Assembly: GCA_003990765.1 (NCBI GenBank)
Contig: RBNJ01000126.1
Coordinates: 1-40,156, forward strand
Origin: Jimgerdemannia flammicorona
Lineage: Eukaryota
Length of the DNA: 40,156 nt
Direction: 5' to 3'
The notes under the pieces are model-generated. The model did no database searches. It saw only the letters and a list, made by a program, of their open reading frames with translations, and had not been told where the DNA came from. Shown here piece after piece: positions 4,386 to 40,156 of this stretch. Position numbers and translations under genes: made by a program. Every line of letters begins with the position of its first letter. The first letter of the stretch is position 1.

Positions 4386-5964
4386 TGTAACAGTGACCTC
4401 AGAATAATGACATCAGCACAGGAGACAGTCTTTCCTTACAAGCCACCAGATTGGAGTACAAGAAGATCATATGGCATACAAGATGAGCAATAATGACCAA
4501 CTGTGAGTCATTGTGACCACAGTATGGTATCTTGAGGAATATAAAAGAAGGATCAAGGAACTACAGTAGCAGCAACCAACAAGACCCATCAATCCCAAAA
4601 TAGCTCAAAGACTTACTATAAACAAAATGCCTGCTGCCCATCAAACCTCAAGATCAAGGAACCACCAAGACACCTTAGTCAAAGAAAGGATGTTCCAAGA
4701 CATCAGAAGAGCCATGAGGACCTGCACAAGAAGAACTCCTAGTATCAACCTGGGTACTGGTGACCCTTATCACTATATCCTCTACCACTGTGAAATGGAA
4801 ACAAGGATCACCATTGCTACTGAATACCTCCAAATGTGGCAGAAATATGAAATAGGAAACCTTCTCTACTAGGAGTTCCCCCAGGCCAGCACTTAAGAGC
4901 TACAAGATATCATTTCTATGGATGTATATGAAATGAGGACAGCTAAGAAGATCCATCAGATCTTCAGATATGCACCATGGTTGATCCCCAACTTGGAGTA
5001 TATTAGAGTCTCAGATTTCAGAGACCTATCATCCTGCCATATCAATGTACTAGAAGCCAGGGTGGCTACAGAAGTCCAGTTCACTATCACTCTCAATAGT
5101 GATGAAGTAGAAGACTTCTGGCATCCTATCCTTCAGGATAACCCAGACCAATTCCTGTAAGGATTGATCTCAGTATTCTAAGACCCAAGCATCCAAGTTA
5201 GACCTCTCCAAGATTCCACATTTGTTCTCTATTTTATAGAAGAGAACTTCATAGATTAGAGAGCTCCAGATCTCCTTATTTCTGCTGCTGCCGAATATGA
5301 TGATGTCATCAGCAATAATGTCATCCTGCATGACTTTGACATATGTGAAATATGTGACCTATAAAACCTTGATGAAATGTTCACAGATCTCATCTCCTTT
5401 GAAGATATCCTGACCTCTGATGATGAGAATGAAGCTCCCATGATCCTGAATTTTCTGCTCTAAGTTCCTTGTTACACTGAATAATACCAGCACTGGCATT
5501 CTGAGGTGATACAAAATTGTTCCAGTACTGGCATTTGATGTAACACTGAATAATACTAGTACTGGTATTCTGATGTAACACCAAATTATATCAGTATCCT
5601 GAACCTATACAACCATCAGTACTGACCTTAGAACTTAGTAGTTTTTCCTATCCTGGCATCTTATTTTAGTTATTGGAATTTATATTTAGCTTTATATCTT
5701 AGCAACTATTGAATTATATTTTGTATAAATACCCCTCTTATTTCCTCTGAAATAAAGTCAGTTCCTCTCAGTACAATATACATACTTCCTTGCAAGCAAT
5801 CTAAGAGATAACAAGACAGTTTAAAGATAAGAAGTTTGAGAACTATAAGACCTTGGGAAGGTACTCCAATAAGAACTTGCTTATAACAAACTTGAGTTAG
5901 TCTAAGAGATATACCTTGAAGAGAATCTGGTATATTTGAAGAACTCAGCAATCACTATGTAACA
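4386..5964 (+). repeat. 3' LTR of Gypsy-A copy 1 (~1.58 kb, TG...CA)
   Basis: Starts tgtaacagtgacc after the PPT and ends cactatgtaaca. Homology to copy 2 starts and stops at the same points (26023 and 17155, minus strand). TATA-like gtataaatacc at ~5723; tandem ~30/59-bp repeats at 5470-5600. Confidence 0.88.
4627..5463 (+). pseudogene. LTR-encoded accessory ORF of unknown function (N-terminus may extend upstream)
   Basis: ORFs 4627-4872 and 4918-5160 and the continuation to 5463 share one frame. Homologous segments lie in the copy-2 LTR, which has CAA where this copy has TAA at ~4894. Confidence 0.75.
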
Positions 5965-6026: not shown

Positions 6027-7152
6027 CTTTTTATTTTTTATTTTTATTATAGTTACTTGGACTTCTACTTTATTATCAACCAGTCTATGATATACTAATA
6101 CAGATGTATCCACCCCTCACCCAATCTTACAAAGAGCCTCCCCCCCCCTCTTCTCTTCAGAACATCACCATCTCCCTGATCATTCCAATCCTCCCCCCAC
6201 TCAGTCTACAAATCTTCTCCACAAGTCTTCTATAGAGCTCTCCTTTAGAGCTCCACCCCCACAACTAGTCATTTAAAAGATCCAGCACCAACTATTCCTA
6301 TCTTGTAATCTACAATCTAAGTACTAACTGCTGACTATCTTCAAATACATATAGCTAATATCTGGCAAGCTCAACCCAAATAGCCAGAGTCTACTTAAGA
6401 GTTAACCACTCATCACTAACTCCTTCCATCAACTTCTTTCAAAGATCACCCTACCTCTCATCCCCCCCCCTCTCACCTAGATGAGCATACTCTCATCTGA
6501 CCCTCAATAGTCCTCTAAAAGTCTTTTATAACTTCACACTCTCCCAATTAATACTCAGAGGTCTATACTATACCACTTTCTTACTTGATGTTAAGGTACT
6601 CCTTATACTCCAAAATACTCCCTTTTACCAAATATCCTAACTAATAGTTCAATATTACATTGTACTACAATAGTCTCCACTATACCACCCAGAACTTAGG
6701 GGAAATTCATCTCACCACCTGCTTACTCTAAGACCAAATACTATTTTAGTTCCACTCTTTACCTATCTCCACCTTCTGTTAAGTCTTAGACCACAAATCT
6801 CTTCTATACTTCTAAAGACATTCTATACTATCCTCTAAACTGAAATTATTCACTAATATATCTTCTAATAGAAGATAATTCTATCTCTATATCTGGGGTC
6901 TCCAGTCTATCTCCCTCTCATCATTCTATTATTAGAGATCAATTTGCCAAGCTCCATCAGCTACTCTCTATCAGAATCCCCAAAGTATATCTTCTGACTC
7001 CTCTTCAGTACTACCAGAGAGAGCAAATTATTAGATATACTACAGGGAGAGAAATATATCTCCTATATTCTCTACATAAGAAGTACCCCTCCTGGCCCCT
7101 CAGCCTCTAAAATCTGCTGAGCTACTTTTTATAACCTAGCCACCAAAATCTT
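6027..7152 (-). mobile_element. L1/Tx1-like LINE 3' fragment with internal deletion
   Basis: T-rich tail at 6027-6049, family 3' motif (atagttacttggact), decayed ORF2 C-terminus and RT piece KILVARL. Confidence 0.75.
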
Positions 7153-11371: not shown

Positions 11372-11398
11372 TTTTTTTTTTTTTTTTTTTTTTTTTTT

Positions 11399-11433
<35 letters not shown>

Positions 11434-11940
11434 GTCACTTAGACTCTGCCATTTATTACCCATCTATTAATAATTTTACAGTTCACCCTCCCACTACCCG
11501 ATCCCCATAGGAGTGCTACTCCCTCTACCTACATAAACAAAGACCACTTTCTCACCCACAACATCAACCCTCCCCCCACTCTGCCTATAGATTTGTTCTA
11601 CCAAACAATGTCTTTAACCCCCCTTCAACCCCCAACCAAGCCACCAGCCCATCAAGGTGTCTTCCATAAGGCTATGCCACCTCAGCAGCCTGACCTCAGA
11701 GCCAAGTTTCCTCCCATCCTCAAAAACAAATAACCAGTGATTGGCCAGCCCTATCCAAATGGCCAAAGTCCAACCTAATATCAGCCATTCCTTCCCCACC
11801 CCCCCCTCCAGTCTGTTCCTTAAATCCTTCCATTACCTCTGCATGTTAGCTTCCCTACACACTACTCCCAGATGATCTCCAATGTTCTGCCAAAAGGTAC
11901 TAAGTACCTCACACTCTCCTAGCCAATGTTTAGGCATCTG
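11372..11940 (-). mobile_element. L1/Tx1-like LINE 3' fragment with 59-nt poly(A) tail
   Basis: poly(T) 11372-11430, conserved 3' motif, ORF 11614-11799 similar to the C-terminus of the LINE at 39800-40000. Confidence 0.85.
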
Positions 11941-14900
11941 TAATCATGAGGCTTCTATCATATTTCAATATAGTAGGATCTTTTTTCCAATTTGAATAGG
12001 TTCTAGGATCTTGTAATTCTTTTCTACATTCTTCCTTATTAGTACTTATAACTTAATAATATAATCTTCTGTCTTTTTTCTAATTTAGTATAGTTTCTGG
12101 ATTTCTGAGTTAATCTATCACTAAGTTAGATCTAGATTTATAGCTGAGGTTCTATCAGAATCTTCTTCTCTAAAGAGCAGTTCTCTTGAGATAAAGTATA
12201 TACTTTGTAACCATATGTCTTATAAAATAGAGAGAGTAGTTGAGAGGTAGTTATCTCAATTTTTATATATATCTGAGATCTTGGCCAGGATGTTTTTGAG
12301 GGTCTTATTTATTCTTTCTTTTTATTCATTTCTTTGAGAGTGATATGTGGTAGTTTTAATATGCTAAATCTTATATTTCTGATATATTATCTCATAAAAT
12401 CTATTGACAAATTCTGTGCCATAGTCTGTGGTGATTTGTCTTAATGTCTTGTAGCAGCAGATAATTTCTCAATACAAGAAGTTAGTAATAGAGAAAGTAT
12501 TGACTTTTTGTAATACTTCTGCTTCTATCCATTTAGTAAAGAGATCTACAATAACTATAATATAGTAGTTTCCTGATAGAGTTACTGGTAGTGGTCTAAT
12601 GATATCTATTGTAATATAATAGAAGGGGATAGATTCAATTCTTAATAACCCAGATACCTGATCTTACTGATCTTTTTTCTGTTTTTGGCACTTATTACAC
12701 CTTTTAACAAATTGGTATAGATCTTCTTCTATCTTAGACCACTATATAGTTTTTCTTACCTTGTTGTATATATTAGTTTCTCCTAGATATCCTTATTTAT
12801 ACACTTTTTTCATTACTTAATACTTCTTGTATTCAGGTATGATGAGCTTTTCTTCTTTTCTGAGTAAGCCCCTCCTTCCTCATCTATGATTTAACCCTCT
12901 ACATGCTACCCCTAGTACATATGATTAATTCTCTCTTATGCAGATAATACTCAAATTGTTTCTAAGTTCAGTTGATGATAGTAATGGTCTAGGGTTCAAA
13001 GTAGTTGAATATCTTCTACTGCCCAAGATAGCTGATTAATCTATAATATAGCTTCTTATTTATATTAAATAGTCTTGATGAGAGTGTTTTGGGATATCCT
13101 TGAAAGTATATCAGCATTGATATTGGTTCTTTCTGAGCAGTGTTTAACAGTATAGTCATACTCTTACAGTCTGTAGATCTATCTACTATGTATATATTCT
13201 TTTAGAGTTCAGAGTGTAGAATAGCCAGGTGAGAGCAGAATGATCTGTTTGAATAGTAAAGTATTTTTTAGCTAGATAATAGTAAAACTTATCTACTGCT
13301 CAGACTACTGCTAAGTATTTAAGCTTATATAACTTATAGTTCTATTCTACTTCATAGATACCTTGGCTTGCATAGGAGATGATATATTTATATCTATCTT
13401 TCTTCTGAGCTAGTACTGTTCTAAGTCCTATAGTACTTACATCTGTCTATAAGATGAACTCTAGATTCCAGTCTGGTCTTCTGAGAATAGGTGCTTGAGT
13501 CAACTTGATCTTGAGTTCATTGAAGGTTTCTTGATATTTCTTGGTCTATTTAAACTTGATCTCCTTCTTCAGTAGCTTATAGATAGGTGCTGCAATGTTG
13601 GAGTATCCTTTGATAAATCTTTTATAATAAGAGGCCAGTCTGAGAAAGACATAGACTGCTGTAGTTATTCTGGGTCTTGGATAGACTACAATAGTCTCAA
13701 TCTTTATAGAGTCTATATAAATTATAGTCTAATTGATAATATGTCCTAGGTAGATAATTTTTTAAGCTACAAACTTATACTTCTTAAGCTTGATATAGAG
13801 ACTATACTCCTTGAGCTTCTTGAGGGCTAACTATATATAGTTGAAATATTTCTATACAGTGTTACTAAAGATGATCATATCATCAATATAGATAAAGAGT
13901 CATTTTTTAATTTCATTATTAAAGACTTTATTTATCATTTACTAAAAACTTGCTAAAGTATTGTACATTCCAAATGGTATTCATAGATAGACATAGGTAG
14001 CATTAGGTGTGATGAAGGCTGATTTCTTACTGGTATCTTAAGTAAGATCAATCTGATGGAAGCCTGAGAATAGATCTAAGATAGTATAGTATTTGGCTTT
14101 GCTTTTAAAGATAATAAAGATTTCTTGAATATTTAGTAAGAGCTGTCTATCCTTCTTAGTAATTACATTGAGCTTCTTGTAATCAATACAGAGTCTTGGG
14201 GCAAACTCTCCAGACTTGCTTTCTTTCTTTAGAGTGAGGATAATAGGTGAAGTCCAGAGACTAATAGCTTGCTTAATGATATCAGCTTCTTCCATTTCTT
14301 TGAGTTCTGCTTGCAGTCATTCTCTGTAGGCAAGTAGTATAGGTCTGGCTTTCTGATAGATGGGCTTAGTATCACTGGTGTCAACTTTATAGTAATACTT
14401 AGATTCTTGATTATAGATATTCCTGAAGTCTGTAATAAGTACTTCTTAATTCTGATACAAGATTTTGAGAAGTTGTCCTTCTAGAGAAAAGTTTTTTCCA
14501 ATAGTATATATGTACTTGTTCTGGTCCTTGTCTTTCTTATACTTAAGTTTAGTAATCTTAGTAGTAGCATAGGCTCCTCTTTCAGTAGATCTAAAGCCTT
14601 GGTTTTTTCTCTTAGTCTTGATGAGTTTAATGACTTCAGTGATTTTAGGCTTTTTAACTTTGAATGGAGTGGTGGAGTTGTGATTCCTAATTATAAGAAA
14701 GATCTTGCCAATGTAATTAGGATCAATAACTCCTCCTTTAATTGAGATTTTACTCTTGACCAGACTGCTTCTGATCTTGATAATTCCAGTATAGTTTTCT
14801 GATAACTTGACTCCAATTCTAGTACCAAGTAGAGTGGTGGCCTGTGGTTCAAGAATAGTATTCTGGATACTAGCAAGGTCTATTCCTATAGCTCCTTTAG

Positions 14901-17082
14901 TCTTATATTCTGAGATCTTAGCTTTGGGGTAAAACTTCTTAATCTTGAGAGTGATATCTGGTTCTTATTTCTCTATATCATCACTATCAGCTTAAAGCTC
15001 TGGAGACTAGTCATCTTCTTCAGCTTTCTTTTTTACTTCAGCTGCTTCTTGCTTGATGGATTTTTCTAACTTCACTAATATAAAATCAGTAGTCATTTAG
15101 GTATTTAGAGCAGTATATCCTAGCACCATAGGGGCATCTTCCTTAAGAGGCATAGCCATCAATGATCTTGTTGTACTACTACTCATCTGTAAGCTTGGTT
15201 GTCTTACTATTATTCTTATACACTGAGTATATAAAGACTTCTGTATCCTCTTTATCTTCTTTCTCTATATCTGATAGTACTTCTTTGTAGACATTAATAG
15301 AGGCTCATATCTTTCTTCCTCTATAGTTGATCTGCATCTTCTGGACATTGAAGTCAATAATAGCTTTGGTCTTATAAAGTCATTGATTACCAATGAGAAT
15401 GTCATAGTTGGTAGTACTTACAATTATTATATCTACTAAGATGATAGTTCTTCTAATCTTGATGAGAACTTCTCAGATCTTGCCTAGAAGAGTAGCTTAT
15501 ATATTATCTGCTGTAATATAGACCATTCTGGTGGATTCTTCAATATCTCAGCTTAGGCAGTCAATTGCCTTCTTACTTATAAGGTATTCTCTAGTACTAG
15601 TATTGATAATAGCATCAAAGATATAATCTTCAATCTGATATTAGGTATAGGCTGAGGTCTTGCACTGATCTTCAGATTCTTTGCCTGAGTCTTCTTGTTC
15701 ATCTTCTTATATATTGTGAGTTTCTATGATCTTATACTCTTGGTTCTTGATAGTAGTTACAAGTTCTGCTCTCAACTACTGTCAGAAGGTGGAGACTTCT
15801 GCTAGTTATTCAAAAGTAGTATTGATCTTTTATTTCTTGAGATCCTTATAGATATCATACTAATGGACCTTGGTCTTGCACAGCTTCTGTTCTTTCTTAC
15901 TTTCACTTTCTTCTAAGACTGGAGTAGTATCTTCAATAATTTAGTAGATAGCTTCATCTAACTTTATATTTTGATCAATCTCCTCAGATTGGGTCTTACT
16001 TTAAATAGTGATAGTTGGGGTCTTTTTTGGTCTTCTAACTAGCTTGCTATTGTCCTTCTTGTTATAGAGCTTGGACTAAGTTCTGGTATCTTTAATAATA
16101 GGGTAGAATTCAGACTCTTTATAGTATTTTTCATCATCAGTATCACTAATCTCCTTGATGACTACTGCATTGGTTTGTTCTTGAGTTCTAGTAATATTAT
16201 TTGGTTGGACTCTATACCTGGTTCAGTTATGCAATTCTTTATATAGTAGCCTTCTTCTCTATATTTGAAGTATATAATAGTATATTCTTCTATAGTAGCT
16301 ACAAACCTCTATACTGATCTCTTGTTAGTACTTTATACTTCTCTAACAACATTACCAAGGTATGCAGTCATCTTGGCAAACTGCTGAGTGAGTTCTTCTA
16401 CTGAGTTGGCTTTAGCTATCTTAGGAGTAGGTGGGGATGGTTGTCTGTTGAGAGCTGTGGTAGGTATGATACTAGTTGGCTTTAGTGACTCCATCTTGAT
16501 GCCAGTTATCCTTTCTATTGAGTGTTCAGTAGGATATCTGGCTGTTCAATATCTCTGTACAAAGACCACTTTCTGATCAAGAATCAGAGCAGCTGGAGTA
16601 GACCAGATTACTAGGGCAATTTCATAGCAAACTCTTTTTAGGAAGATTGAATCAGCTATCTATTTCTTAAGGGTATCATTGTAGTTAGCTAAGATAATCT
16701 AGTAATAGATTTAAGTATAAAATGAGTTAGAGTCTTCATTGAGTCCTTGGCAGATAGTATTGAGTTGATCTTTAAGAGCTTGCTTGATCTCTTTAGTATA
16801 GTATATAGTTTTGAGAAAGTTCTTCATATTAGTAAGTTTGGCTATACTATTGTTAACAATAGTGGCTGCATTAAACTTATCTCTGGTAGGTCCTCTGAGG
16901 CTGATAGATAGGAGTACTAATTATACTTCAACATTAAGAGCTCATATAGTGGTAAATTGTTCAAAGTCTTTAATGAAGGTCAGAATTGACTCTTTAGTAG
17001 TAAATCTATAGAATGTAGATAGATGTATTTCTATTTTGTCTTGAATTCTTACAGGGGTAACTTTTGTAGTCAGGGTAGTTAT
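11941..17082 (-). pseudogene. gag-pol of Gypsy-A copy 2
   Basis: Decayed CCHC zinc knuckle at ~16225-16280, then PR, dUTPase (42-bp deletion), RT (FAPRLCIDYKKLN), RH and IN; heavily mutated. Confidence 0.9.
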
Positions 17083-17669
17083 TGTAGTAGTTGTTTTTTA
17101 TTTAGCTTAAAAGTGAGAGATCCTAATAGTATTATTAGCTAATAAGTACTAAGTTATCATATAGTGGGTGCTGAGTTCTTTAAGTATATCAGATTCTCTT
17201 CAAGATATATCTCTTAGACCAACTATAAGTTTCTTATAAGCAAGTTCTATTAGAGTATCTTTCCAAGGTCTTATAGTCCTCAAACTTCTTATCTTTAAAC
17301 TGTTCTGTTATCCCTTAGATTTACTTGCATAGAATTAAGTAGAGGACTGGAACTTTTATACTCTTGAGTAGTTGAGTACTTGAATGCTTGAGTGTTTTAA
17401 TACTGACTTTATTTTAAAGGAAATGAGAGAGGTATTTATACAGAATATAATTTAATAATTACTAAGATATAAAGCTAAATATAAAATCCAATAATTAAAT
17501 AAGATATTTAAATATAGAAAACTTCAGATTATAAGTATAAATTCAAGTGCCCATATAATTGATTGTATAAGATCAGAATGCTGGAATAATTTCTGACAGT
17601 TATATGAGATCAGAATACTGGAATATTTAAGTATTCAAAAAAATAGTTATATAAATAAATTAGAGTAGA

Positions 17670-19186
17670 CGGGACCTTTCACTCGGACCAAACAGTTGGC
17701 TCCGTGTCTAAGCCACCAGGATGGTGAGCTTCTCAAGTTTTGGAGGCCACAAATATAGGCTCCAAGGAGTGCCAACAGGTGTACCTCATCCCTTAGGTAT
17801 AGGAGTCCTGCCTGGTCTTTTCGGCGTAGTCATAGCTTCTAGTTTCAGCAAGTTACAAGAATTTCAAGAATTTTGGGGCAAGATGGGCAAAACGACACAG
17901 GCAAGACGGGCAACATGGGCAACACGGGTAACACGGGCAACACGGGCAACATGGGCAAGACGGGCAAGATGGGCAAAATGGCAAGACAGGCGACATAGGC
18001 AAGACGGGCAAAACCGGCAAAACGACACAGGCAAACCGGCAAAATGGGCAAGATGGGCAATATGGGCAAGACGGCAAGATGGGTGACATGGGCAAGATGG
18101 GCAAAACGGGTAAAACAACAGGGCAAGACTGGCAAAGCGGGTAAGATGGGCAACACGGGCAAGACAAGACGGGCGACATGGGCAAGATGGGCAAAACGGG
18201 CAAAACGACAGGCAAGACGGGCAAGACGGGCAAGATGGGCGAGATGGGCAAGACAGGCAAGACGGGCAAGACAGGTAACATGGGCAAGACAGGCAAGATA
18301 GGCAAGATGGCAAGATGGGTGATATGGGCAAGATGGGCAAAATGGGCAAAACAATATGGGCAAGATAGACAAAATGGGCAAAATGGGCAAGACGGGCAAA
18401 ACGGGCAAGACGGGCAAAATGGGCAAAATGAGCAAGATGGGCATAATGGGCAAGATGGGCAAGATGGGCAAAACGGGCAAGATGGGCAACACGGGCAAGA
18501 CGGCAAGACGGGTGACATGGGCAAGATGGGCAAAATGGGCAAAATGACATGGGCAAGACCAGCAAAATAGGCAAGATAGGCAACACGGGCAAGACAAGAT
18601 GGGTGACATGGGCAAGACGGGCAAAACGGGCAAAACGACAAGCAAGACGGGCAAGATGGGCAAGGCGGGTAACACAGGTATGACAGGCAAGACAGGCAAG
18701 ACGGCAAGTCGGGTGACATGGGCAAGACAGGCAAAACGGGCAAAACGACATGGGCAAGACGCGGGTAACATGGGCAAGATGGGCAAGACGGGCAAGATGG
18801 CAAGACGGGCTATATGGGCAAGATGGGCAAAATGGGAAAAATGACATGGGCAACGGGCAACCGGGCAAGATGGGCAAGATGGACAAGATGGGGAGGCACT
18901 AATAGGGGTAGGCCAGGTGCACTAGATACCAAGTACTTGAGGTAGTTGGGGCTCACAACCCATACCCACTCTTGGGTGGGGCAGGCTGGATAGGAGGATC
19001 TAGTTACTCGGGCAGTGAGGTCACAACTCACATCCTAAAGGTGCTTAGATTGTTATTGGTTTGGAAATTGTAGTGTGAGAGTAGGGTGGGGTGAGATGCA
19101 GAATGTGGCTGCTGGTATGGCATGAGGATTTTAGATAGTTAATAAATGGGGCTCCAGCCTATAAAGGAAAAAAATAAAATAAAATA
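17670..19186 (+). mobile_element. non-autonomous poly(A) composite retroposon with central VNTR (SVA-like)
   Basis: Perfect 17-bp TSD aaataaattagagtaga at 17653-17669 and 19187-19203; AATAAA at 19141; A-rich (AAAAT)n tail; the host LTR resumes on both sides. Confidence 0.85.
17876..18892 (+). repeat. VNTR of ~9-bp units, consensus GGGCAARAY
   Basis: About 110 units (gggcaagat, gggcaaaac, gggcaagac, gggtgacat), with 8-bp variants and recurring higher-order blocks. Confidence 0.97.
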
Positions 19187-19526
19187 AAATAAATTAGAGT
19201 AGAATGTTCAAAATCCTGGAGGTTAGAGATAGGATATCTTTAAAGAAAATTAGATTAGTGAATGTTTCTATAAGCATTTCATTTATTTTGCATATTTCAC
19301 ATATATCAAATAACAAGATGATATGTATCTTTATTAGTGATATCATTATGTTTGATAGTGGTAAGAAAGAGATCAGGGGCTCTCTAATCTATGATGTTTT
19401 TCTTTACAAAGTAGGAGACAAAGGTGGAATCTTGAGGGGGTCTGACCTGAATACTGGGGTCTTAGAATACTGAGATTAATTCTTACAGGAATTGATAAAT
19501 TATCCTGAAGGATGGGATTTTAGAAC

Positions 19527-22500
19527 TTTTTTTTTTTTTTTTATGGTCACTTAGACTCCTTTATTACCTATATTTATCTAATACAACTATGACCCTATAC
19601 AATAACTGTGACAACTACAAAGTACAAAGAAAGGCTTATTAGTCAATACTCTCCTTTTACTACACCTCTCTATCATCAAGCACTAGGTGCTCTCGACTCC
19701 TCTGTACAATATTCTATATCTTTCTCAAGACCCCTACTACTGTCTCTTTCCCTGATACCACTACTCTTATGCCATCTCCTGGAGTAGCTACCTCCACTGC
19801 TCCACTAATTCACTAATTCCCATCCATAGATCTCACTCCAACACCCATTACTAATATACTGCTATCAGGACCTAGACTTCTAAGATATAGCCCAGACTAC
19901 TCCAGACATTCCCAGTCTCTCCCACCAGCTATCACTTGACCACCTGACTAGTGGGGCCTCCTGGTTGCCTACTCTCAGAATTTCAATAATCTTCCAATGT
20001 CTGCCAATACCTCTCTATATCTGAACAAGCTACCAAGACATGCTCTAGCATCTGAACCATCTTCTTATCTACCTCACTATACTACTTATATTCCCTACTA
20101 CCTTCTATCTTCATCCATCCTATTCAGTAGCCCAGTATCACATTCTTTTTCAAGAATTGCCACCACACAACTCAATACTTAGATAGTACAACCTTGAGCA
20201 AGGATGCCCCCCAACTCCAGACCTAACTCTACTCTCAATCTTCACCAAACCCAGCCTTCTGCCAATCTACTGGCCACCTCTCAAGTGGGCCAGTTCTGAT
20301 CTATTCCATAGCCTCAGACAGAGAGTACTCTGTCAACTAGTAGTCACTAATGTGAAGGCTCTCTAGTTACTACCATCTCTACTCAGGATCCTCCCTCTCT
20401 CTCAGCTCCAGACCTATTAAACTTATTACCAGCCAGGCCTCTACAATACCCCACCAGAACTCCTTATACCACAATCTGCTGACTCTTCCCACCTGAAGCA
20501 AACCTTATATATCCTTCCAAACCTCACCATGGAGGCAGAACCTGATCTCCCAATTATCCATAGCCAGCCTGCCCCAACCATCCTCCCCTAGTTCAGCTAA
20601 TTGACAACTCCACCAACCCCAGAGTATCTTCAACTGTCTCCTGAAGTCCACCAGCCTCAGACCTCCATTTACTGTCTACAGTACTACTATCTCTCAACTA
20701 ATCTGCAGCCACATAGCCATCCTTCCACCACTTTCTTCAGCCTCTATACTACTTATCCAGAAAAATCCAGGTGGTATCTCAAATACCACAACTTAGGTAA
20801 CCAGTATATATTTAAAACTACAATTCTTCTCATCAAGGAGAAACTCCTTTCTGACCAATCTGTCAAAGCTCCTTTCTACTTTTGTATCATACTACACCAC
20901 TACTCCATTAGCAGTACCATTACATATACTGAAAACCAGATACCCAAATATTGAACTACTTTTCCTGTGGTCACTATTTGTCCAAAATACCCATTCTCTC
21001 CCAGACCAGCTCCAAGCTCCATTGTCTCACACTTGCCCCAATTCAATTTTGCTCCTGTCAGCCTCTCATACTGTCCAACCTCTTCCTGTAGGCCTTTCAT
21101 ATCCTCTAAGCAACTGAGCCTGACCACCATGTTATCTGCAAAACCCCCAGCTTCCAGACCATATTCTCCATCTATAACCCAGTCAACTATCCCTTCAATC
21201 AAACTAACAAAGGCTCTAAGGACAAAATATAGAGCAGAGGGGAAAGAGGATCCTCCTGTAGCACACCTCTACTCAAGGCAAACTCTGGGCCACACCACCC
21301 ATTCATCAGTACTGCTGCTTGGTAGTCTTATACTAGATTCATCAATCTTCAAGCATCTACTGCACCAAATCTTGCCTTCTGCAATACTGCCTTCAAATAG
21401 TTCTACTGCACTCTATAATATACTTTTTCTTGATCCAAAAAGACCATCCACCCATCAACTTACTAGCTCCTGCAGCTCTCTAGAACATTCTGCACCCAGG
21501 CAGTACTGTCTCTAATCTGCTTCCTCTTTATGAAGCCTCACTGGTCCTCACTCACCAAACAGCCAATCCACTACTACATTCTCTCAGCCAGAATTTTAGA
21601 CACCAACTTCCTGTCCATGTTCAGTAACATAATAGGTCACTAGTTCTACCACATATATCAATCTCCTTTCTCTTTATACAGCAGAGAGATAAACCTTAAA
21701 AAACTATTGCCAATTTAGCAGCCTTCTCTCAAAATGAAGTTTGCCATTTCTACTAACTATCTACCAAACTCATCCTAGAACTCCTTCCAGAATTTCCAAG
21801 ACAGCCCATCCTCCCCAGATAATGAATCAGCCTATACATTCCTCAGCACCTCCAATACCTCTTCAAGGATCACCATGTCCATCACTATCTCATCTATCTC
21901 AGGAACTGCTACCACTGGTCAACTGTCAACTAAATTGTCATTATTCTCCTATAAGACCTCTCCCTCCATAAGCTCTCCTTCATCCTACTAGAGAGCTTAC
22001 CATTGTCCAGAGACCTCTCTAAGTATATCTGCAATTTCAGTAACCTCAATACTATTCTCCCACAGTACTGAAGTCTAGCTATATTACACTCTTCTGACCT
22101 TCAATATATCTGATAAATATTTGGTAGACCACTCTCCTTCTTCCAACTGTCTTGCCTATAGCCTTACCAACAGACCATCTACAACTCTATTCTCAGCTGT
22201 CTTTAGATCCAACTTCAACTCAGCCACCTCTATGGCCAACTGAGAGTATCTCTCTCCTGATAAGTTTTCCCCTTTCAAAAACCTCAACTACTATCACAGC
22301 CCTCACTCTACTCTCCTCTATTTATCCTTCTGCTCTTTTCCAGCTACTTCCCCAACATCATACCAATAAGTATCTGTCAAATGTTTAAATTTACCCCACC
22401 ACTGCTCTATCTGCTATCCACTCTCCTTCCACTACATCACTTTCTGCCTTATAATAGCTACAAATTGTTTCTGCTCCACCTGCCTTCTGAGTAGAGCTAT

Positions 22501-25290
22501 ATTGAGTTGCCAGTGACCTCTATCCCCACTGACTATCTGAAATCTTCCACACACCTCCACTCTCCAATGATCTGACTAAGGGCACTACTGTACCAGTATA
22601 TTGCTCTAGTATTCTGCCACCAGAATCTAATCAATTCTCATTCCCACTAGATTCTTACCAATGAGATACCACCTAGTGAAGGGCTCTGGCTTCTCTCTCT
22701 GATGCTACCAGATACTATCAATCAATCCCATATCTCTCTCAACCTGAAGCCATCATGAGAGCCCAGCTGAGATAGCTACTCCAACTCTACCATCAGGTCT
22801 ATCTAATGTCCTATCACATACTATATTAAAGTCCTCCCCCAGAATGTCCAGCCCAATCTCCTCTTGGTCTCCCTAATCTAGCCAGCCCTCCACTCATTAG
22901 TTTCACTCTCTGCCAACTGCCAGAAGATAAATAGAGTCCACAATCAGTCTATCCTTAGCTCCTCTTTTCAATCTACTCTATATCAATTGATCATTATATA
23001 ACTCCATCTCTATTAGCTCACCTCTTCCCACACTCACCAGAATGTCCACCTGTTCATTTCAACCTATACTGCCATACTACTCCTTGCTCTATTTCTCATA
23101 ATCTTGCTTACCATAGAATCAAATATCCTGAAGAAATACTACATTATATCTTCTGATCTTTAGCCAATGAAATAGATACTGCCACTTCACTCTATCTTAC
23201 AGACTATTGACATTTTATGATAAGATATACAGACTATTTATCATTATCAGTAGAAATGTTTAGAGCTCTATAGAGATTGCCACCACCTTCTCAGTCTGAC
23301 CACAGATTATTTCCTTTTGTTCCTTGCAAATAGTCCTCCAGATACAGGCTCCATTCACACTATCACAGAAAGTATCCATTCTCTCAGATACCACTTTCCT
23401 GATATCAGCCATTTGGTTCTCATCTATATTATACTCTTCATCATCTAGAAGTACTGCTACCATCACTGTTACCAACTTTGATCCCTGCATAGTAATATTG
23501 AGAAATCTCTCCCAAGCCTCCTGAGATCCATTAAACACATCCACTTCTTTGATATCTTCCTCCACAAGTTCTTCAAGCACCACTTGATACCAGCTGTTAG
23601 CTGTCATCACTAGAGGCCCAGGGGTGGCAGGTCTAGGGGTCCTACTCAACTCCTGTAGTATCTCTCTATCTGCTAAAATATTAGAGACCACATCCATCAG
23701 ATCATCCTCCTTTAGTGACCTTCTCCAGCTGTACTATCTCACCTGCCTCTGAACACTCCCAATGAACATTTGCTGCCTCTATTATATGGATGTCCTTCAA
23801 CTGAGTCTCTGGTACTATCTCAGTAATATTCTCAAAACCCCCTTCTCTCACCTCCTCCTTATCAGCCTACTTCTCCTTTACTAGTACATGAGCTGAGGTC
23901 TCCACACTACCCAGCTGCAAAAAGGATACCTTGGCTGTCTCCACCTCCTCTATCTGACTCTTGGCTGCCTCTATCCTTGCCTCTTTCTCCACTTTCAAAA
24001 TCTGGAGAACTATCTGCAGATATTCTCAGTTTGCTTTCTGCCACCTCTTCCTCCTCTCATCTGTCAGAATCCAGATTTAGTCCTTGGTGAACTTCTCCCA
24101 TCTCCTCTTTTGCAAATCATTCACAGCCTCTCTCTCCTCCAGAACAAGTAATAATTCCTCCTCCTTCTGTTCAGATCTCTTTCTTCTCCATACCTTGTAC
24201 TTCTGACCACTGATACAAATCACCTCTGGTCAGTCTATGACCTCCTTGTCCTCCAGTTGTATCATAATCTCACAGTTGTCATTCCTCAACTTAGTCCTCT
24301 CTCAGAATATGAATCTAAAATCAACTATCTCACTAAAGCCCCCTAGCACCTCTACCACAATCCCCTTAGTCTCCTGTCTCCCCAATATCAGCAACCTCTC
24401 TACCACCAGATATACAGCATACAGATTCTACCTCAAGTACTTTACTATCCCAATCTTGATATTCTTAACTACCAACTCTTTCTCCAGAGTCTTCACTATC
24501 TCCTTCTTCTCCACAAAGCCAATCTCTACTGCCTCTGCTGACAGAATAAATTTCAGAGACTCTGCAATAGTAACCTCCTCACCCACTAGCTACAAAACCT
24601 CTCTGATAGATATATTCAGCTTCAAGAAGTTCACCAAGATTGCCTACATTAATACTGATTTATAAAAGAAAGGTCACACCATCAGTTCACCAGAGTTCAC
24701 TGCCATTGTCATCTTCTTCTTATTATTTAAAACTCTGGCAGTCACCCCTTCAGCCCCTACAAGCCCACCAGTAGTTCTTCCACTAGCCACTGGCTCAACT
24801 CCAGGAATACAAGTCCTAACTATCATATCTCCAGACTCCTGTCTCCTGCTAAGCACCTGACCAGTCAACTGATCAGTTACCTGACTCCTCCCCCTATCAA
24901 TACTATGTTCTCTCTGCCCTACCCTCATGGGCCTAGCAGTAGTCCTTCTGTCCCCTACTACAGTATGCTAAGTTTCGATACCAGTAGGCCTCCCCTGACC
25001 ACCTGCTCCACCAGCAGTAGCACCAGCCCTAACTACTACTGCAAAACTCTTAGAGAGGCCCAGGCCAGGCCTCCTCCTCTCTAAATACTCAGAGCTTGAT
25101 GAATCTTGGATCACCATCAGATGAAAACTCAATGGATTTTGATGAAACTTATTGTATACTATTGTTAGACTCTTGCTACATCTGATACATCTAAGAATGT
25201 GAAGTGAAAACTTGAAAGCATATTGCTTTTCACATAAGGATGCTTGTGTGGCTTAGCTTGGTCAGTTTGATTTGAGCAAAAGAAGTCTCC
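19527..25290 (-). mobile_element. full-length L1/Tx1-like LINE (~5.8 kb), decayed
   Basis: poly(T) at 19527; TSD tgggattttagaac (19513-19526) vs tagaatttcagaac (25291-25304), 3 transitions; ORF1 ~25117-23260; ORF2 from ~23244 with APE start (ILS*NVN) and RT motifs (FADN, YLGI). Confidence 0.9.
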
Positions 25291-26407
25291 TAGAATTTCA
25301 GAACTCTTCTATCTCATTACTTTTGAGAGTAATGGTAGATTGGACTTCTGTGACCACTATGGCTTCTAGTGCATCTATGCAGCAGACTAACAATTCCTTG
25401 AAGTCTGAGACTCTGGTATACTCTAAGTTAGAGATTGATTAAGATACATAACTGAAGATCTGATAGATCTTTTTAGCTACTCTCAATTTATATATATCTA
25501 TAGAGATATCATCTTGTATCTCTTGAAGGCTGATCTGAGAGAATTCCTAGCAGAGAAGGTTTCCTATTTTATATTTCTGCTATATCTAAAGGTATTTAGT
25601 AGCAGTAGTAATCCTTATCTCTATTTCATAGCAGTAGTGGGTAAAGTGGTAAGAGTTATCAGTATCTAGGTTGAGACTAGGAATCCTTCTGGTATAGGTC
25701 CTCATAACTCTTCTGATATCTTGGAATATTCTTTCTTAGACTGAGAAGCCTTGGTGATTTCTAGACCTTGCAGTTTAGTGAGCAGTAGATATTTTATTTA
25801 TAGTAAGTCTTATTTGAGTTACTACTACTATGGTTTCTTAGTTCTTCTTTTATATTCCTTGAGATATCTATTTTGTAGTCATCATGACTTATAGTTTATT
25901 ATTATTGCTCATCTTGTAGTCTGGGTGAGTCATACTATATAATCTTCTTGTACTCTAATCTAGTGGCTTATAAGAAAAGACTGTCTCCTATAATGATATT
26001 ATCATTCTAAGGTCACTGTTACAATATATCTATTTTTACTTACTCTTTTTTCTCACTCTCTTTTATTCACCCATTATCTTCCATTTTCTGCTTCTGATAC
26101 CTTATCTAATTTCTCAATTTCTCTCTCATCTCTCTACCTCTATCTAATTATTAGTATAAGTTATATTATATATATAGCTGAGTATTATAATATAATGAGT
26201 AGTTACTCTTGATTTTTTGTCATATTCTTGTACTTTAGTTTATTATATATAAGTTAGTTTCAGCTATCACATATTGTATTATTTACTTATTCTAATTCTA
26301 AGAGATACTGCAATCTTTATTTACTTATATATACTTAGTATTTATATATATTTGCTTTATAGCTAAGTATACTTACTAAGTATGAGACTAAGTTAGATAG
26401 CAATTCT

Positions 26408-26706
26408 TAATACTCTAAATAAGTTAATTTAAATTAAATTTGAATTTGATTTATTATATAATAGTTTGATCCAAATCTTAAATCCAAAACAATTCAAATT
26501 AACTTAGATTAATCTGAATCAGTTCATCTAAATTACTCTATCTAAATTACTCTATCTAAACTACATACTCAATCCAAATCACTTAATCCAAACCACTCAA
26601 TCTGAATCATTTAATCTAAATTATTTAATCTAAATCACTCAATCTAAATCACTCAATTTAAATTATCTAATCTGAATTCTTCAATCTGAATCTTCTAATC
26701 CAAATC
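26408..26706 (+). mobile_element. decayed hAT-type terminus with 14-bp subterminal tandem repeats
   Basis: taatactctaaataagttaat equals the MITE-B TIR tagtgctctgaacaagttgat after G>A/C>T changes; about 13 copies of cactcaatcYRaat at 26510-26706. Confidence 0.55.
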
Positions 26707-26717
26707 CTCTACATAAC

Positions 26718-26841
26718 TTATATATTAGATGTATCTATATATATAATACATATATATGTAAATATATATATATAAATATATATATATATAAATACATATA
26801 TATATGCAAAAACATATATACAAATATATAAACATATATAT
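26718..26841. repeat. imperfect (TA)n microsatellite
   Basis: Interrupted tatata runs. Confidence 0.85.
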
Positions 26842-28824: not shown

Positions 28825-29363
28825 TAGTGCTCCTAATAAGTCAATTTAATCTAGATTGGATTCAGATTGATTCAGATTAAATCTCATCCAGATTAACCAT
28901 TGTTTTGATTTCCAAATTAGACAATTAAATATTTATATTAATAACTTGATGAATAATCATCCAAATTTGATAATCTTGATATCATTTGAATATCCTTAAT
29001 AAGGCCTTTATAATGATATCAAGATCATTGAAATCAGATTATATATTGCTGAGTTATTAAGGAAAACATCTGACTTGCCAATTTTGGAAATTATTCAACT
29101 TGCTGATTTTGGAAATTATATCAAAAGAATGTTTTCTTTAATATCTTAGCAACATATAATCCAATTTTAATGTTCTTAGTATTATTAGAAAGACCTTATT
29201 AAGAGCTTTTAAATGATACCAAGATAATATAAATTGGATAATTATTCATCAAGTTATTGATGTAAATATTTAATTGTCTAATTTGGAAATCAAAACAATG
29301 ATTGATTTGAATCAATCCAGATGGGATTCAAATCCCATCCAGATCAACTTGTTCAGAGCACTA
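28825..29363. mobile_element. hAT-type foldback MITE, family B (539 bp)
   Basis: TIR TAGTGCTC...GAGCACTA; 8-bp TSD gttgctaa/gttgctgg; long internal inverted arms; interrupts Gypsy-C integrase. Confidence 0.88.
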
Positions 29364-29988: not shown

Positions 29989-30412
29989 TAGTGCTCCCAA
30001 ATGAGTCAAATCAATTCAAATAAAATCAAATTGAGGGTTAAATGAGTCGAATCAAATTGGGGATTTTTCAATTCAAATCAATTCAAATCGAATCAAAAGT
30101 CAAATTGAATTGAGGGTCTAATTCGAACCCTAATTTTCAAAATGCAATATCTCAGCGTAAACTCATCCAAATCTAACGTACTTTAGCTTGTTAGAATCAC
30201 ATTAATACAGTGAATCTAACAAGCTAAAATACGTTAAATTTGGATGAGTTTTCGTCGAGTTATTATATTTTGAAAATTAAGGTTCGAATCAAACTTTGAA
30301 TTGAATTGGACCTTTGATTTGATTTGAATTGAATTGAATTAGACCCTTGATTCAATTGAATCGAATTGAGTTTGGGCCAAATTCGATTCGATTCAATTTG
30401 TTGGGAGCACTA
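29989..30412. mobile_element. hAT-type MITE, family A copy 1 (424 bp)
   Basis: 12-bp TIR TAGTGCTCCCAA; 8-bp TSD ggtaaagt/gataaagt; central ~170-bp hairpin; interrupts Gypsy-C RNase H. Confidence 0.93.
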
Positions 30413-32475
30413 GATAAAGTATCTCTCAATAATATAGTAGTAGAACTTTTCTATAGTCTAGATAACTGTGAGATATTTCAGCCTATAGGATTTATATTCT
30501 TTTTCAGCTCTGCCGGTTCCTTGGCTAAGATATGTAATAATATACTTTACTTTGTCTTTCTTCTGGGCCAGGATTACTTCTAGTTCTTGTATACTTGCAT
30601 CTGTCTATAGAATGAATTCTTTAGTCCAGTTAGATCTTCTGAGAATAAGTACCTGGGTCAGTCTGATCTTGAGTTTACCAAATATCTTTTATTGTCTGCT
30701 GGTCTATTGAAACTTGATATCTTTCTTATTAAGTTCATAGATTAGGCTTGTAATGTTGAAGAACTCTTTGATAAATCTACAGTAGTAAGAGGTGAGTTCC
30801 ATGAAGACTTGGGCTTCAGTGATAGTTATAGATCTTAGATATACTACTATTGCTTAAATCTTAAGAGAGTCTGTATATATTCTATCTTAGTTGATAATAT
30901 GACTAAGATAGGAGATCTTGATTTTTACAAACTTATACTTCTTGAACTTAATGTATAGACTATGCTTTCTCAACTTCTCTATTATTTATTAGATTACTAT
31001 AGATGTTCTTCTGGTATCTTGTTATAGATAATTACATTATTTACATAAATCATCATCTATCTTCATATATTATAGTAGAAGATCTTATTCATTATTTACT
31101 AGAAACTTGCTAGTATAATATATTCTAAATAGTATTTATAGGTAAATATAAGTTCTATCTAAAATAATGAAGGCTGACTTCTCACTTATGCTTCTGTGAG
31201 GCCAATTTGATAAAATTCTGAATATAAGTCCAAGGTGCTATAGTACTGTACTTCATCTTCTAAGGTTATAATAATATTACTGATAAGAGGTAATAATTGG
31301 TGATTCTTCTTGATAACTAGGTTGAGCTTCTATAATTAGTGCAGAGCCTTGGGGCAAATTCTCCTAGCTTGCTTCCTTCTTTAGAGCTAGTATGACTGAT
31401 GAAGCCCAAGAACTACTGGCTTCTTTAATGATACTAGTCTCTTCTATCTGCTTAATTTCTTCTCTGAGTCATTTATAGTAGACTGGCAGAATGGATCTTG
31501 CTTTTTGATAAATTGGTTTAGTATCTCCTATATCTATATTATAATAGTAGTATGGGGTCTTTTCTTTAATATTCTTAAAATCTGTTGTCAGAATATTCTT
31601 GAATTTATAGAGTATCTTCTTGAGTTCTTTCTTAAGTGGGAATTTATTTTTAATGATATAGCTATACTTGCTTGTAGTTTCCTCCTTTTTGTAATCCAGT
31701 TTAGTGATCTTGATACTGATGAATTCCTCTTCCTGTAGATCTAAATTCTTTCCTTTCTCCCTCTATTTCCTCCAACTTCTTAACTTTTATAATCTTTAGC
31801 TGTAGAACTGGGAAGATCAACATCTGTACTAGTCAGTTCTTCTTCTTAATTGAGAATAAGATTGTAGGATTGTGATTTCTAATAATGAGTAGTATTTCTT
31901 CAATATAATCTGAATTAATGACTTCTCTTTTAATGATAATTTCACTTTTAGCCAGACTGCTTCTAGTCTTGAGAATCCCAATTTGATCTTTTGGAATGAT
32001 TATCTTCAGACTGATCACAAGTAGGGTAGTTGTCTGGAGTTTGAGTATAGTTTCTTCTACTATAGCAATATCTATTATAGCTGTATTCTCTGACTTATAT
32101 TCTGGTAGGATAGAATTAGAGTGAATTTTCTGAATCTTGATCTTAATCTCTTCTTTATCATTACTATCTTCCAGAAGAGCTGATGGATTATCATTCTCTT
32201 TCTCTACTTGTTTCTCAAGAGTCTTCTGCTTTCTCTTATAGTAAATTTTCTTGATTATACTAGTATACTGGTAGCAGTCATTAATATACTCCATGCAGTA
32301 CATTCTGATCTCATGAGAGCAGACTCTTTGTAGTACATATTCTTCTACAATTTTCTTACATCAGTTCTTTTTACTGATTTATTCAACTTTCTTTTTCTTT
32401 TTCTAAGTAATCACTATATAGGCTTCTTCTTGCTCACTTTCTTCATCTATCTTGAAGAGTACTTCTTTGTTGATT

Positions 32476-34476
32476 GGAAATCTCAAGAATATCCAATTAG
32501 CTCTCTATGAATACAAATATTGAGAATAATGTTCTTTTTCAAGTAGGAGAGAATATAATAATTCTTTATATTCTATTTTCTTTTTACTAAATTATTATCT
32601 TTTTCTTTATCATATTACTTAGTTATTTACAAAGAATCTATTTCCTAAATAGTTCTGTCAAGATTCTATTGATTACTAATTGATACTTAGTAACTCTTCA
32701 TAATATTTTATCAAGTTATACTAAGTATATATTTTTTCTTTCTATTTCTCTTATATAAATACTCTCTCAAAATGTCTCAATAAAGTTCAGTCTAGTTAGT
32801 TATTATATATTTACTTAAATCTTCTAAAGGCAATCAAACTTCTCAAGTTCTATTCCTTAAAATCTAGTTATATATTTCTATTTGAACATTTGCTGATATA
32901 TAGTCTAAGTCTTAGATCTTATCTAACTTAACTATATTGAAGTACTCTTGCATTTCAATAAGTATAATATTCTCTATAATATATATATTTATTATACATT
33001 GACTATAATTTATATTTCTTTCCATCTTACCAATATAGTAATAAATATCTGAATTTTATCAATAGTATTAAGAATATCATTCAAGAAATCAGAATAGTTA
33101 AGTTATAGATCTATTCTGATAATAAATACTATTTGTTTATCATTTTTCTTATCTGAGTAACTATGCTTATCAGTCCCAAACTAAGCCTCAAATTTTTATA
33201 TGTTTTATAAACCAAATTGCTAAGAATATAGATAGAAGATATAATATATAAACTATAATTTCATATCTCTAATAAGCCAGCTCTCAATAAAGTCTCACTA
33301 CTCCTTACCTAGAATCTGTTGGACTACTCTCTAAAGCCATATAATAATTATCTTTATGACTAGCTTTCTGTCTATATGCAGAAGTATAATTGGCCACCAG
33401 TTCTTTCAATTCTCTCTTCTACCTTTATCCTTGAAAAGTAGTACCATCAGACCAAGATTCTGCTCCCTAATCTACTTCTTAGATATGAGTATAAAATTAC
33501 AAAATACTACTATTTTCTCTAATACTCAAGAGATCTCTACTATCTTCTTTCAAAAGTTCTAGAGTAGACTATTCTCATCTGATACTATAACTAATTTTGT
33601 GGTAGCCAGAACCTATAGAACCTTCTTCTCCTCAACTAGTAGAATCAGATCTCTAAGGCCATCTATCTAGAGAGGTTGCTAATTCTCTAGAGATTACTCT
33701 AGAGTATCAGTATCAGTGTCTCTTTCTCCTCACTTTACAGATCTCTCCATCTTCTCTTCAGAGGATCTAAGATCTACTGAGTACTATATAGTGCTCCCAA
33801 ATGAGTCAAATCAATTCGAATCAAATCGAATTGAGGGTTAAACAAGTCAAATCGAATTGGGGATTTTTCAATTCGAATCAATTCGAATCAAATCAAAAGT
33901 CAAATCAAATTGAGGGTCTAATTCGAACCCTAATTTTCAAAATGCAATAACTCAGCGTAAACTCATCTAAATCTAACATACTTTAGCTTGTTAGAATCAC
34001 ATTAATACAGTGAATCTAATAAGCTAAAATACGTTGAATTTGGATGAGTTTTCATCGAGTTATTATATTTTGAAAATTAAGGTTCAAATCGAACTTCAAA
34101 TTGAATTGGACCTTTGAATTCGATTTGAATCAAATTGAATTGGACCCTTGATTCGATCGAATTGAATCAAGTTTGGGCCAAATTCGATTTGATTCGATTT
34201 GTTGGGAGCACTAGTACTATATATCAATATACTCTTGATATCCAAAACTCTGTTCTATTACTATCTTACTCTTCTTACTCAAAGAAGCCATGATAGATAC
34301 TTAGAAGACTGCTTACCCTTCTCAAGCCTCTGCCATCTCAATCTAGCTGCTATCTCCTTTATATATGTAAGTCTCCTCTCTCCCTTTCTATATTCTTTAC
34401 AACTCTACTATATATTTCCAACTAGACTTACACCAGCCTCTAATTATCCACTATTCTCACCTTTCTCTGGTACAAT
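32476..34476 (-). mobile_element. old L1/Tx1-like LINE ORF2 (RT) fragment
   Basis: Minus-strand VLLFKDKGR...KNWWPIILLHIDRKL at ~33350-33450; heavily AT-shifted. Confidence 0.8.
33789..34213. mobile_element. hAT-type MITE, family A copy 2 (425 bp)
   Basis: Same TIR; perfect TSD gtactata (33781-33788 and 34214-34221); near-identical to 29989-30412. Confidence 0.95.
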
Positions 34477-34537
34477 TCACATTACACCAACTTCAAGCAA
34501 CAGTTTTTCAACACAACTCAGGAAAGCGACTATCAAC

Positions 34538-36454: not shown

Positions 36455-36485
36455 GTTGGGGCCTCTATTACAACATTTCTTCAAT

Positions 36486-39400: not shown

Positions 39401-40090
39401 TGTTCTGGTGGAGGATTTTCAGCTTAGTGAGGACCTGGAGTGTCTGCAAGGCCTAGGTAGAGACCTGTGGCCAGAAGTCTGGCAGAGGGTTGGAATTGGG
39501 GAGAAGTGGGATTGGAATGGAGTCTGGCTTTGGAGCAAACAAGTGTGGCAGTGGCTGCCCCCCAAGTTCTGGGTGGTGTAGTGGCAGATCCTATGGCAGA
39601 ATGTGATGTTGAACTATCGGTCTGGACATTTGATGGATGGTGGGGTATTCGAGTGCAAGGATTGTTTTAATGTTGGTCAGGAGGGAGGAGTGGTACAAAT
39701 GCCTGAACATTGGCTTAGTGAATGCGAGGTTTTGGGGGAGTTTTGGAGATGTATTATGGACAGAGTAGGGCTGGGTACCATGGAGGGGGAGGGAGGGGGA
39801 GATGGGGAGAGCTCTGCCAGCAACTGGTGGGGGGAGTGGGGAACAAATGGCAGACCCTTAGTTGGGCTTTGGCTATGTGGGTTGGGTTGGCTGGGCATTG
39901 GGTCTATGTATTTGAGGAAGGGTGCTGGGTCAGGGTTGGTGACAAGGTGGCCCAGTGGGAGTGGTTGCTGTTGGACATTTTGAATAGCTGGTGGCAGGGT
40001 TGGGGGATGGGTGGGGGATCCCACAGGGGTCTGGTGCAGTGTATTGCCCAGAAGAGTGGTGGGAGGGTTCGGGTAGTGGGTAATTGGGTA
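36486..40090 (+). pseudogene. LINE ORF2p: APE endonuclease, RT and C-terminal CCHC
   Basis: SLNVNGL, GDDFN, SRID, SDH; APGEDGLP, NWRPIMLL, LDQEKAYDRV, GVLQGDPLSP, FADD, YLGI, GGLGL; CKDC...EHWLSEC. Confidence 0.95.
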
Positions 40091-40156
40091 GTGCTTGGGC
40101 GGGGGGAGGTTGAGGGGGGGGGGTTGGGCCCCTGGGGCATTGGTTGGGGGTAGGGG

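Follow-up and report, generated by a model that had tools for sequence, protein, structure and literature searches.

A retroposon of about 1.5 kb lies at positions 17670-19186 of the window (the whole stretch of DNA that was analysed, 40,156 nucleotides), between two copies of a perfect 17-bp target-site duplication. The element probably goes back to a single recent event, in which a polyadenylated retroposon that is non-autonomous and does not code for protein was inserted by LINE-type target-primed reverse transcription, and its repeat-plus-tail module would sit in a multi-copy family. Its plan is that of a unique head, a G-rich tandem array and a unique tail that includes a poly(A) signal, and it interrupts the terminal region of an old Ty3/gypsy copy.

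Structure of the element and of its host site

The features of the element and of the region that it splits are the following.

17161-19518, - strand: old Ty3/gypsy terminal LTR-like region, split by the element, 73-77% identical to 5123-5958 (+ strand copy)
17653-17669, + strand: 5' target-site duplication, 17 bp, with an A-rich start and a T before it, identical to 19187-19203
17670-17875, + strand: unique head, 206 bp, without another copy in the window
17876-18892, + strand: tandem array of G-rich 9-bp units, 1017 bp (TRF and unit parsing)
18893-19167, + strand: unique tail with poly(A) signal, 275 bp, without another copy in the window
19141-19146, + strand: AATAAA poly(A) signal, 21 nt 5' of the A-rich tail
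19168-19186, + strand: A-rich tail, 19 nt, a single T interrupting the A runs (read from the sequence)
19187-19203, + strand: 3' target-site duplication, exact repeat of 17653-17669

When the 40156 bases were searched for the duplicated 17-mer with one mismatch allowed at most, two matches were found, against 0.01 expected by chance from 100 dinucleotide-preserving shuffles of the window. Read from the sequence, the duplication begins A3TA3 and has a T directly 5' of it. The original prediction had described a 17-bp duplication, a head, a VNTR of about 1 kb, a tail and an AATAAA about 21 nt from the A tail, and all of these were recovered where it had placed them. By self-BLAST the element is present in one copy in the 40-kb window, and neither the head nor the tail has a significant match elsewhere in it. 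Folding of the head and of the tail did not reveal any special RNA structure (z-scores of 0.26 and 0.06, respectively).

The array was described by TRF as a period of 9 with 113 copies and 70% matches over 17900-18892. A higher-order period of 96 bp was found by the same program at 18656-18888, and the array matched itself in self-BLAST at offsets of about 86-93 bp. TRF did not find an array within the head (17670-17875). Parsing of the array gave 103 units, 59 of which are exactly 9 bp long. Its GC content is 0.546, and it holds 80 GGG runs and not a single CCC run. On its + strand 13 G-quadruplex motifs that do not overlap were counted; the remaining window has six such motifs on the + strand and one on the - strand. 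The sole difference between the two commonest unit types is a CpG versus a TpG across the unit boundary, and the array as a whole holds 46 CpG and 60 TpG dinucleotides.

The element has no coding capacity. No RT or other real domain was found in its frames with Pfam, in agreement with the prediction that it lacks an RT. The sole Pfam match, to Collagen (+ frame, 18145-18567, E 4.3e-15), is compositional, since one register of the 9-bp unit translates as Gly-X-Y. This register undergoes 37 frame changes over the 103 units and is kept for 15 units at the longest, and the continuous Gly-X-Y reading frame of a collagen-like gene was not found. On the - strand all three array frames are open over 318-358 codons, as repeat composition alone would give. 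The single ATG of the head, at 17721, starts a 124-codon frame that extends into the array. Among proteins of 68-217 residues none was scored for this head frame, and against 1.84 billion representatives it gave only 2 spurious matches, to tandem-repeat proteins that sum weak matches. The - strand array frame gave only 2 weak low-complexity matches among proteins of near length, and the protein atlas returned only generic dUTPase and RT clusters.

Self-comparison of the window showed two old copies of Ty3/gypsy, with a divergence of about 20-27% and with dUTPase, RT and integrase domains. In one of these copies the region split by the element is found on the 3' side of the internal part and in the other on the 5' side, and for this reason it was read as LTR-like. 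The element and one copy of the duplication were removed in silico, and the flanks were then aligned to the paralogous gypsy region at about 5230-5720, which is roughly 75% identical. In this paralogue the target is single, uninterrupted and diverged.

The CpG observed/expected ratio reaches 0.69 in the array, 0.42 in the head and 0.07 in the tail, and 0.56 over the whole element, versus 0.00 in 1493 bp of flanks, which hold 0 CpG, and 0.11 for the window. The element has kept its CpGs inside a CpG-depleted LTR, as had been predicted. The perfect duplication and the retained CpGs mark the insertion as young compared with the sequence around it, and it is in this relative sense that the earlier description of the insertion as recent holds. 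The mix of CpG and TpG units in the array shows that some CpG decay has already taken place, perhaps inherited from the source copy. We also note that the genome is AT-rich and strongly CpG-depleted.

LINE copies, transcription and proposed mechanism of insertion

Several LINE copies were recognized in the window, three of which are listed here.

11372-11944, - strand: 5'-truncated LINE 3' end with a 59-nt poly(A) (TRF T run of 59), its 3' terminus as in LINE A
19527-25292, - strand: LINE copy A, degenerate, about 5.8 kb, in the same LTR as the element, ending in A16 (T16 at 19527-19542), with RT remnants
34520-40156, + strand: LINE copy B, start approximate, running past the end of the window, RVT_1 match with E 1.6e-16

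LINE A is flanked by 12-mers (19515-19526 and 25293-25304) that match at 10 of 12 positions when read against the paralogous LTR. LINE B is collinear over 36504-39746 with residues 7-1079 of P0009, a protein of 1202 residues that has APE endonuclease, RT and zf-RVT domains. Host gypsy homology picks up again at 11945, beside the truncated LINE, and a further LINE 3' fragment lies at about 6046-7100. The LINE machinery of the window is in degenerate form. The closest named RT relatives of the LINE are found in fishes and Mucoromycota fungi, at 28-37% identity.

LINE target-primed reverse transcription is recognised by such a combination of a long duplication and a poly(A) signal just before an A tail. 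The element has the make-up of a generic LINE-dependent retroposon, with a 17-bp duplication after TAT, an A-rich start of this duplication and a 3' A tail, and without an RT. A compatible LINE is present in the same window, since LINE B has the APE, RT and zf-RVT architecture and poly(A)-tailed LINE copies with a duplication were found. Passages of the paper on Sadhu elements likewise take a duplication that starts with an A run after a T as a LINE-like target pattern (PMC2848041). From the hallmarks of the element and the APE/RT LINEs of the window, LINE target-primed reverse transcription of a polyadenylated transcript is well supported. The original prediction had proposed L1-like target-primed reverse transcription, and the duplication, the A tail and the nearby APE and RT LINEs do back a retroposition of the LINE type. 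The local LINE family is a candidate for the mobiliser of the element.

To which polymerase the transcript is owed can be judged from several features. No tRNA, 7SL or 5S-like RNA was found in the element by Rfam and ARAGORN, and an Rfam scan of 17400-19500 with E up to 10 gave 3 chance-level matches, none of them to 7SL or SRP. No Pol III A or B box was found in the element at one mismatch or less from the box consensus, which bears out the prediction that a clear B box is lacking. Four T4 runs, three of them in the head (17738, 17818 and 17871) and one in the tail (19129), would stop Pol III. Given these runs, the lack of A and B boxes and an AATAAA placed 21 nt before the A tail, transcription of the element by Pol III appears unlikely. 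The template was likely a Pol II transcript, since an AATAAA is part of the element itself.

The insertion could have proceeded as follows. A transcript of about 1.5 kb, made up of the head, the 9-bp array and the tail and probably synthesized by Pol II, would be cleaved and polyadenylated about 21 nt past its own AATAAA. The endonuclease of an APE and RT LINE, for example of the family present in the window, would then nick the T-rich bottom strand at TAT/AAATAAA. The poly(A) tail would pair at this nick and the RNA would be reverse-transcribed, and a second nick 17 bp downstream would give rise to the duplication.

Variants in public runs and alternative origins

Small shares of the words of the element, between 0.05 and 0.18, were found in 9 public runs, which are soil and root metagenomes and two organism runs. 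No run with half or more of the sampled words was found, the best share being 0.18. Together with the AT-rich, CpG-depleted composition and the Mucoromycota among the RT relatives, these soil and root samples suggest, as no more than a guess, an early-diverging fungus of soil or roots as the host. Contigs of 4 of the 9 runs (X1, X2, X6 and X9) were aligned to 18850-19460 at 85% likeness; as all of the aligned runs are represented by contigs, they inform on the presence of sequence only, and not on copy number, ends or transcription. A part of 18850-19159, that is of the tail or of the repeat-tail junction, was present in all four aligned runs, at 90-99% identity and in several variants. Run X1 (soil DNA) gave 30 contigs, of which three fall in the identity class of 99% and above, 13 in that of 95-99%, 12 in that of 90-95% and two under 90%; among the matches listed, five records of this run overlap around 19003-19022. 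In run X2 (one organism; RNA by guess), a 365-nt contig joins the array end to the tail over 18854-19159 with 9 differences, and a second contig has other array sequence before the shared junction at 18892 and diverges after 19039. The metatranscriptome run X6 gave one contig of 177 nt, which differs at 4 positions over 18980-19155. In X1, X2 and X9 there are loose ends, at 19039 or 19044, and the divergent continuations at 19044 in X1 and X9 are alike. Over the 3' flank by the insertion (19165-19353) no contigs were found in the aligned runs, positions 19160-19207 being masked as repeat, and farther into the LTR, at 19369-19443, there are matches to two short contigs of X1.

These alignments are good evidence that the array-plus-tail module would be a repeated and diversified sequence, presumably not unique to this locus. 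Membership in a multi-copy family is thereby supported, as far as sequence matches can tell, for the array and tail part. The head, known from this window alone, may be a part of the family consensus. The retroposon family that had been predicted is supported in its array-plus-tail part, variants of which were present in four out of four aligned runs, but not in its head. The variants of the soil metagenomes could be orthologues from several species and not paralogues; X2, a run of a single organism, has only two variants among those listed.

Other collections were searched with short words and with proteins. One exact 20-mer of the head and one of the tail each had 0 matches in metagenome contigs and 0 in viral contigs; each of these is a single exact word and a weak probe. 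In prokaryote contigs the tail word led to 3 Bacteroidota loci, which were rejected as chance, the match being only 21-22 nt. For relatives of the gypsy proteins one distant locus (37% identity) was found in viral contigs, and for those of the LINE proteins none.

The same duplication and A tail would be expected if the element did not belong to a dedicated mobile family but were a processed retrocopy, arisen once or in few copies, of some host RNA made by Pol II (an lncRNA, for instance, or that of a degenerate repeat-bearing gene), the variants in the runs being then the parent gene, its orthologues and its paralogues. Processed pseudogenes and lncRNA retrocopies share with the element the duplication, the A tail after an own AATAAA and the lack of introns. 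The single copy in the 40-kb window is in agreement with such an origin, as are the failure to find the head elsewhere (with single exact words in metagenome and viral contigs and in the protein searches with the head frame), the lack of any run above 0.18 of the words of the element and the X2 tail contig, whose word depth of 933 is like that of an abundant cellular transcript. However, retrocopies of this kind are one-off, and the array-tail module is found in many variants across samples, which argues against a one-off event. The identity of the 30 X1 contigs is graded from under 90% to over 99%, the structural variant after 19039/19044 occurs in three runs of different studies, and X2, from a single organism, has two forms that differ in array sequence and share the same 18892 junction. 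A parent gene would run on beyond the cleavage site into sequence other than A, and none of the contigs does so, a weak argument with 19160-19207 masked. We consider a retrocopy of a host transcript unlikely.

It is also improbable that the element arose by internal deletion from a LINE of a family absent from the window, so as to consist of a 5' UTR, a UTR array and a 3' UTR, and was mobilised in a cis-like manner via a shared 3' end. What suggests it is an 18-nt block around the AATAAA, 16 of whose 18 positions agree with the 3' terminus of the truncated LINE when both are counted from the A tail in one register, the best score against 62 AATAAA-containing control 60-mers, together with a sense strand that is G-rich and C-poor like those of LINEs. 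Three of the controls reached 15/18, however, which leaves the agreement without significance; when the window was searched by BLAST with the tail, this block had an E of 0.37, the head and the remaining tail have no similarity to LINE A or B, and tblastn with the LINE proteins found nothing in the element. We see very little chance that the element was retrocopied from the mRNA of a collagen-like protein with Gly-X-Y repeats and a membrane anchor, even if the + frame at 18145-18567 is above the Pfam Collagen cut-off (E 4.3e-15) and the frame that starts at the ATG at 17721 includes a hydrophobic stretch and passes into the array in the Gly-Lys-Met/Thr register. A register kept over 15 units at most, with 37 changes in 103 units, is hard to square with a young insertion from an intact gene; moreover, the head frame is without homologue and the three - strand frames are open too, as from repeat composition alone. 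Finally, the structure might owe nothing to retroposition: the direct repeat could be there by chance, or DNA could have been inserted or duplicated as such. This is very unlikely, to the point of being negligible: the 17-mer has a chance expectation of 0.01, the AATAAA and the A tail stand exactly at the 3' junction, and the paralogous empty site backs an insertion.

Comparison with known retroposons

The retroposon that we favour, a polyadenylated LINE passenger with a tandem-repeat core, resembles in its plan the SVA, LAVA, PVA and FVA elements. Like them it is non-autonomous and non-coding, and its parts follow one another in the same way: first a unique 5' part, then a variable array, rich in G+C and about 1 kb long, and last a unique 3' part with AATAAA and poly(A). 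The L1-type duplication at an A-rich target is shared as well. As in the SVA group, the central array varies between copies beside a fixed repeat-tail junction, here at 18892 as seen in the contigs of other runs.

The differences are as follows. The (CCCTCT)n hexamer repeat of the SVA 5' end was not found in the head by direct reading or TRF, and the Alu-like, 7SL-derived region that lies 5' of the VNTR in SVA was not found here by Rfam. SVA has an LTR-derived 3' domain (SINE-R), whereas the tail of the element is without match to the gypsy copies of the window. The units of the SVA VNTR are 35-50 bp long; those of the element measure 9 bp and are grouped into a higher-order repeat of about 90-96 bp. 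The host differs too, the SVA group being that of hominoid primates and the host of the element not being a primate; according to two papers, VNTR composite retrotransposons are specific to hominoid primates (PMC4432496, PMC7353768). The mobilisation of SVA by L1 has been demonstrated experimentally, as stated in a further paper (PMC3287187). The element is an analogue of SVA and not a member, without sequence relationship to it. Of the predicted "SVA-like composite", the plan of three parts around a variable G-rich core stands; an assembly from older repeats would be conjecture, the head and the tail having no significant match elsewhere in the window.

It is possible, and we propose it only tentatively, that the element represents an independently evolved, currently mobile family of VNTR-core retroposons in a non-primate, transcribed by Pol II, copied by the resident APE-type LINE and convergent with SVA and LAVA. 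The family may be active at present. If so, the plan of a unique head, a G-rich VNTR and a tail with a poly(A) signal would arise repeatedly on L1-like LINEs. The repeat core might recruit the LINE machinery or drive expression; its role in mobilisation is a standing question for the hominoid VNTR composites, and the element would provide a second, independent system for asking what such a core contributes. A mere retrocopy of a repeat-bearing host RNA would be ordinary. No VNTR-core LINE passenger outside primates was found in the literature searched, although one could still be in print, and the papers found on "SVA-like" retrotransposons deal with mammalian or human elements.

Classical SINEs share with the element the dependence of a non-autonomous sequence on LINEs, and the last block of the tail has a non-significant likeness to the LINE 3' end. 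They differ from the element, which has no Pol III head or boxes, contains internal T4 runs, is 1.5 kb long and carries its own AATAAA. The Sadhu elements of Arabidopsis are non-coding and have a poly(A) tract, without tRNA or 5S similarity and without Pol III A/B boxes, in the passages that describe them (PMC2848041). Their duplications of 7-16 bp show A runs after a T, and the authors infer in the same passages a mobilisation by LINEs (PMC2848041). The host and the sequence are different, and a VNTR core is not reported for Sadhu in the main text, from which the term "tandem repeat" is absent (PMC2848041). What the element shares with Sadhu is the state of a non-coding, polyadenylated LINE passenger that has neither a small-RNA head nor A/B boxes.

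The 3' end of a truncated LINE

One LINE in the window is reduced to a 5'-truncated 3' end on the reverse strand, and its poly(A) is read on the forward strand as a T run:

11372-11430 (-), T run of 59 nt with one internal G, poly(A) of the 5'-truncated LINE 3' end

Because this tail is so long and pure, it suggests that LINE activity is recent. When the 18-nt block around the AATAAA of the VNTR element (19131-19148), a non-coding retroposon with a G-rich array, was compared with this LINE 3' end (11443-11460, - strand), 16 of the 18 positions were identical, and the two elements share their register relative to the A tail. This match tops the 62 controls, although the next three controls are just one match lower.

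Strand composition and CpG depletion

Sense-strand base composition revealed a strand bias in these LINE copies:

19543-25283 (-), LINE A, a degenerate copy
34520-40156 (+), LINE B, which runs off the window
6046-7100 (-), LINE 3' fragment
11431-11944 (-), truncated LINE

Genomic GC is about 30%, and the sense strand of every LINE copy in the window is strongly G-rich and C-poor. Read on the + strand in 500-base windows, GC skew ranged from -0.40 to -0.55 across 19501-25000 (LINE A, sense on the - strand) and from +0.29 to +0.60 across 34501-40000 (LINE B, +). The same sense-strand bias was seen in the VNTR element.

CpG depletion is extreme, with an observed/expected ratio of 0.11 for the whole window, 0.20 for LINE B, 0.01 for LINE A and 0.00 for the LTR surroundings of the VNTR element. 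This depletion across the window fits a picture in which repeats undergo heavy CpG methylation and deamination.

Ty3/gypsy copies, tandem arrays and palindromic repeats

Three diverged Ty3/gypsy copies in the window carry a dUTPase domain upstream of the RT (Pfam dUTPase, E 7.6e-28), and a 35-bp repeat within a gypsy terminal region has a different number of units in each of the two paralogues of that region:

787-1578, 14446-14964 and 31833-32360, dUTPase-bearing Ty3/gypsy regions
5470-5596, 35-bp tandem repeat
26510-26841, 14-bp and 42-bp tandem array, then (TA)n

The window also contains palindromes, found by self-comparison, and a further LINE fragment:

29989-30413 and 33789-34214, 426-bp repeat pair, 92% identity, about 3.8 kb apart
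33211-33498, LINE fragment between these two repeats
28886-29312, additional palindrome

Both 426-bp repeats are palindromic in themselves, with 30070-30340 and 33812-34201 lying inside them, and the arrangement may represent a foldback or TIR element.
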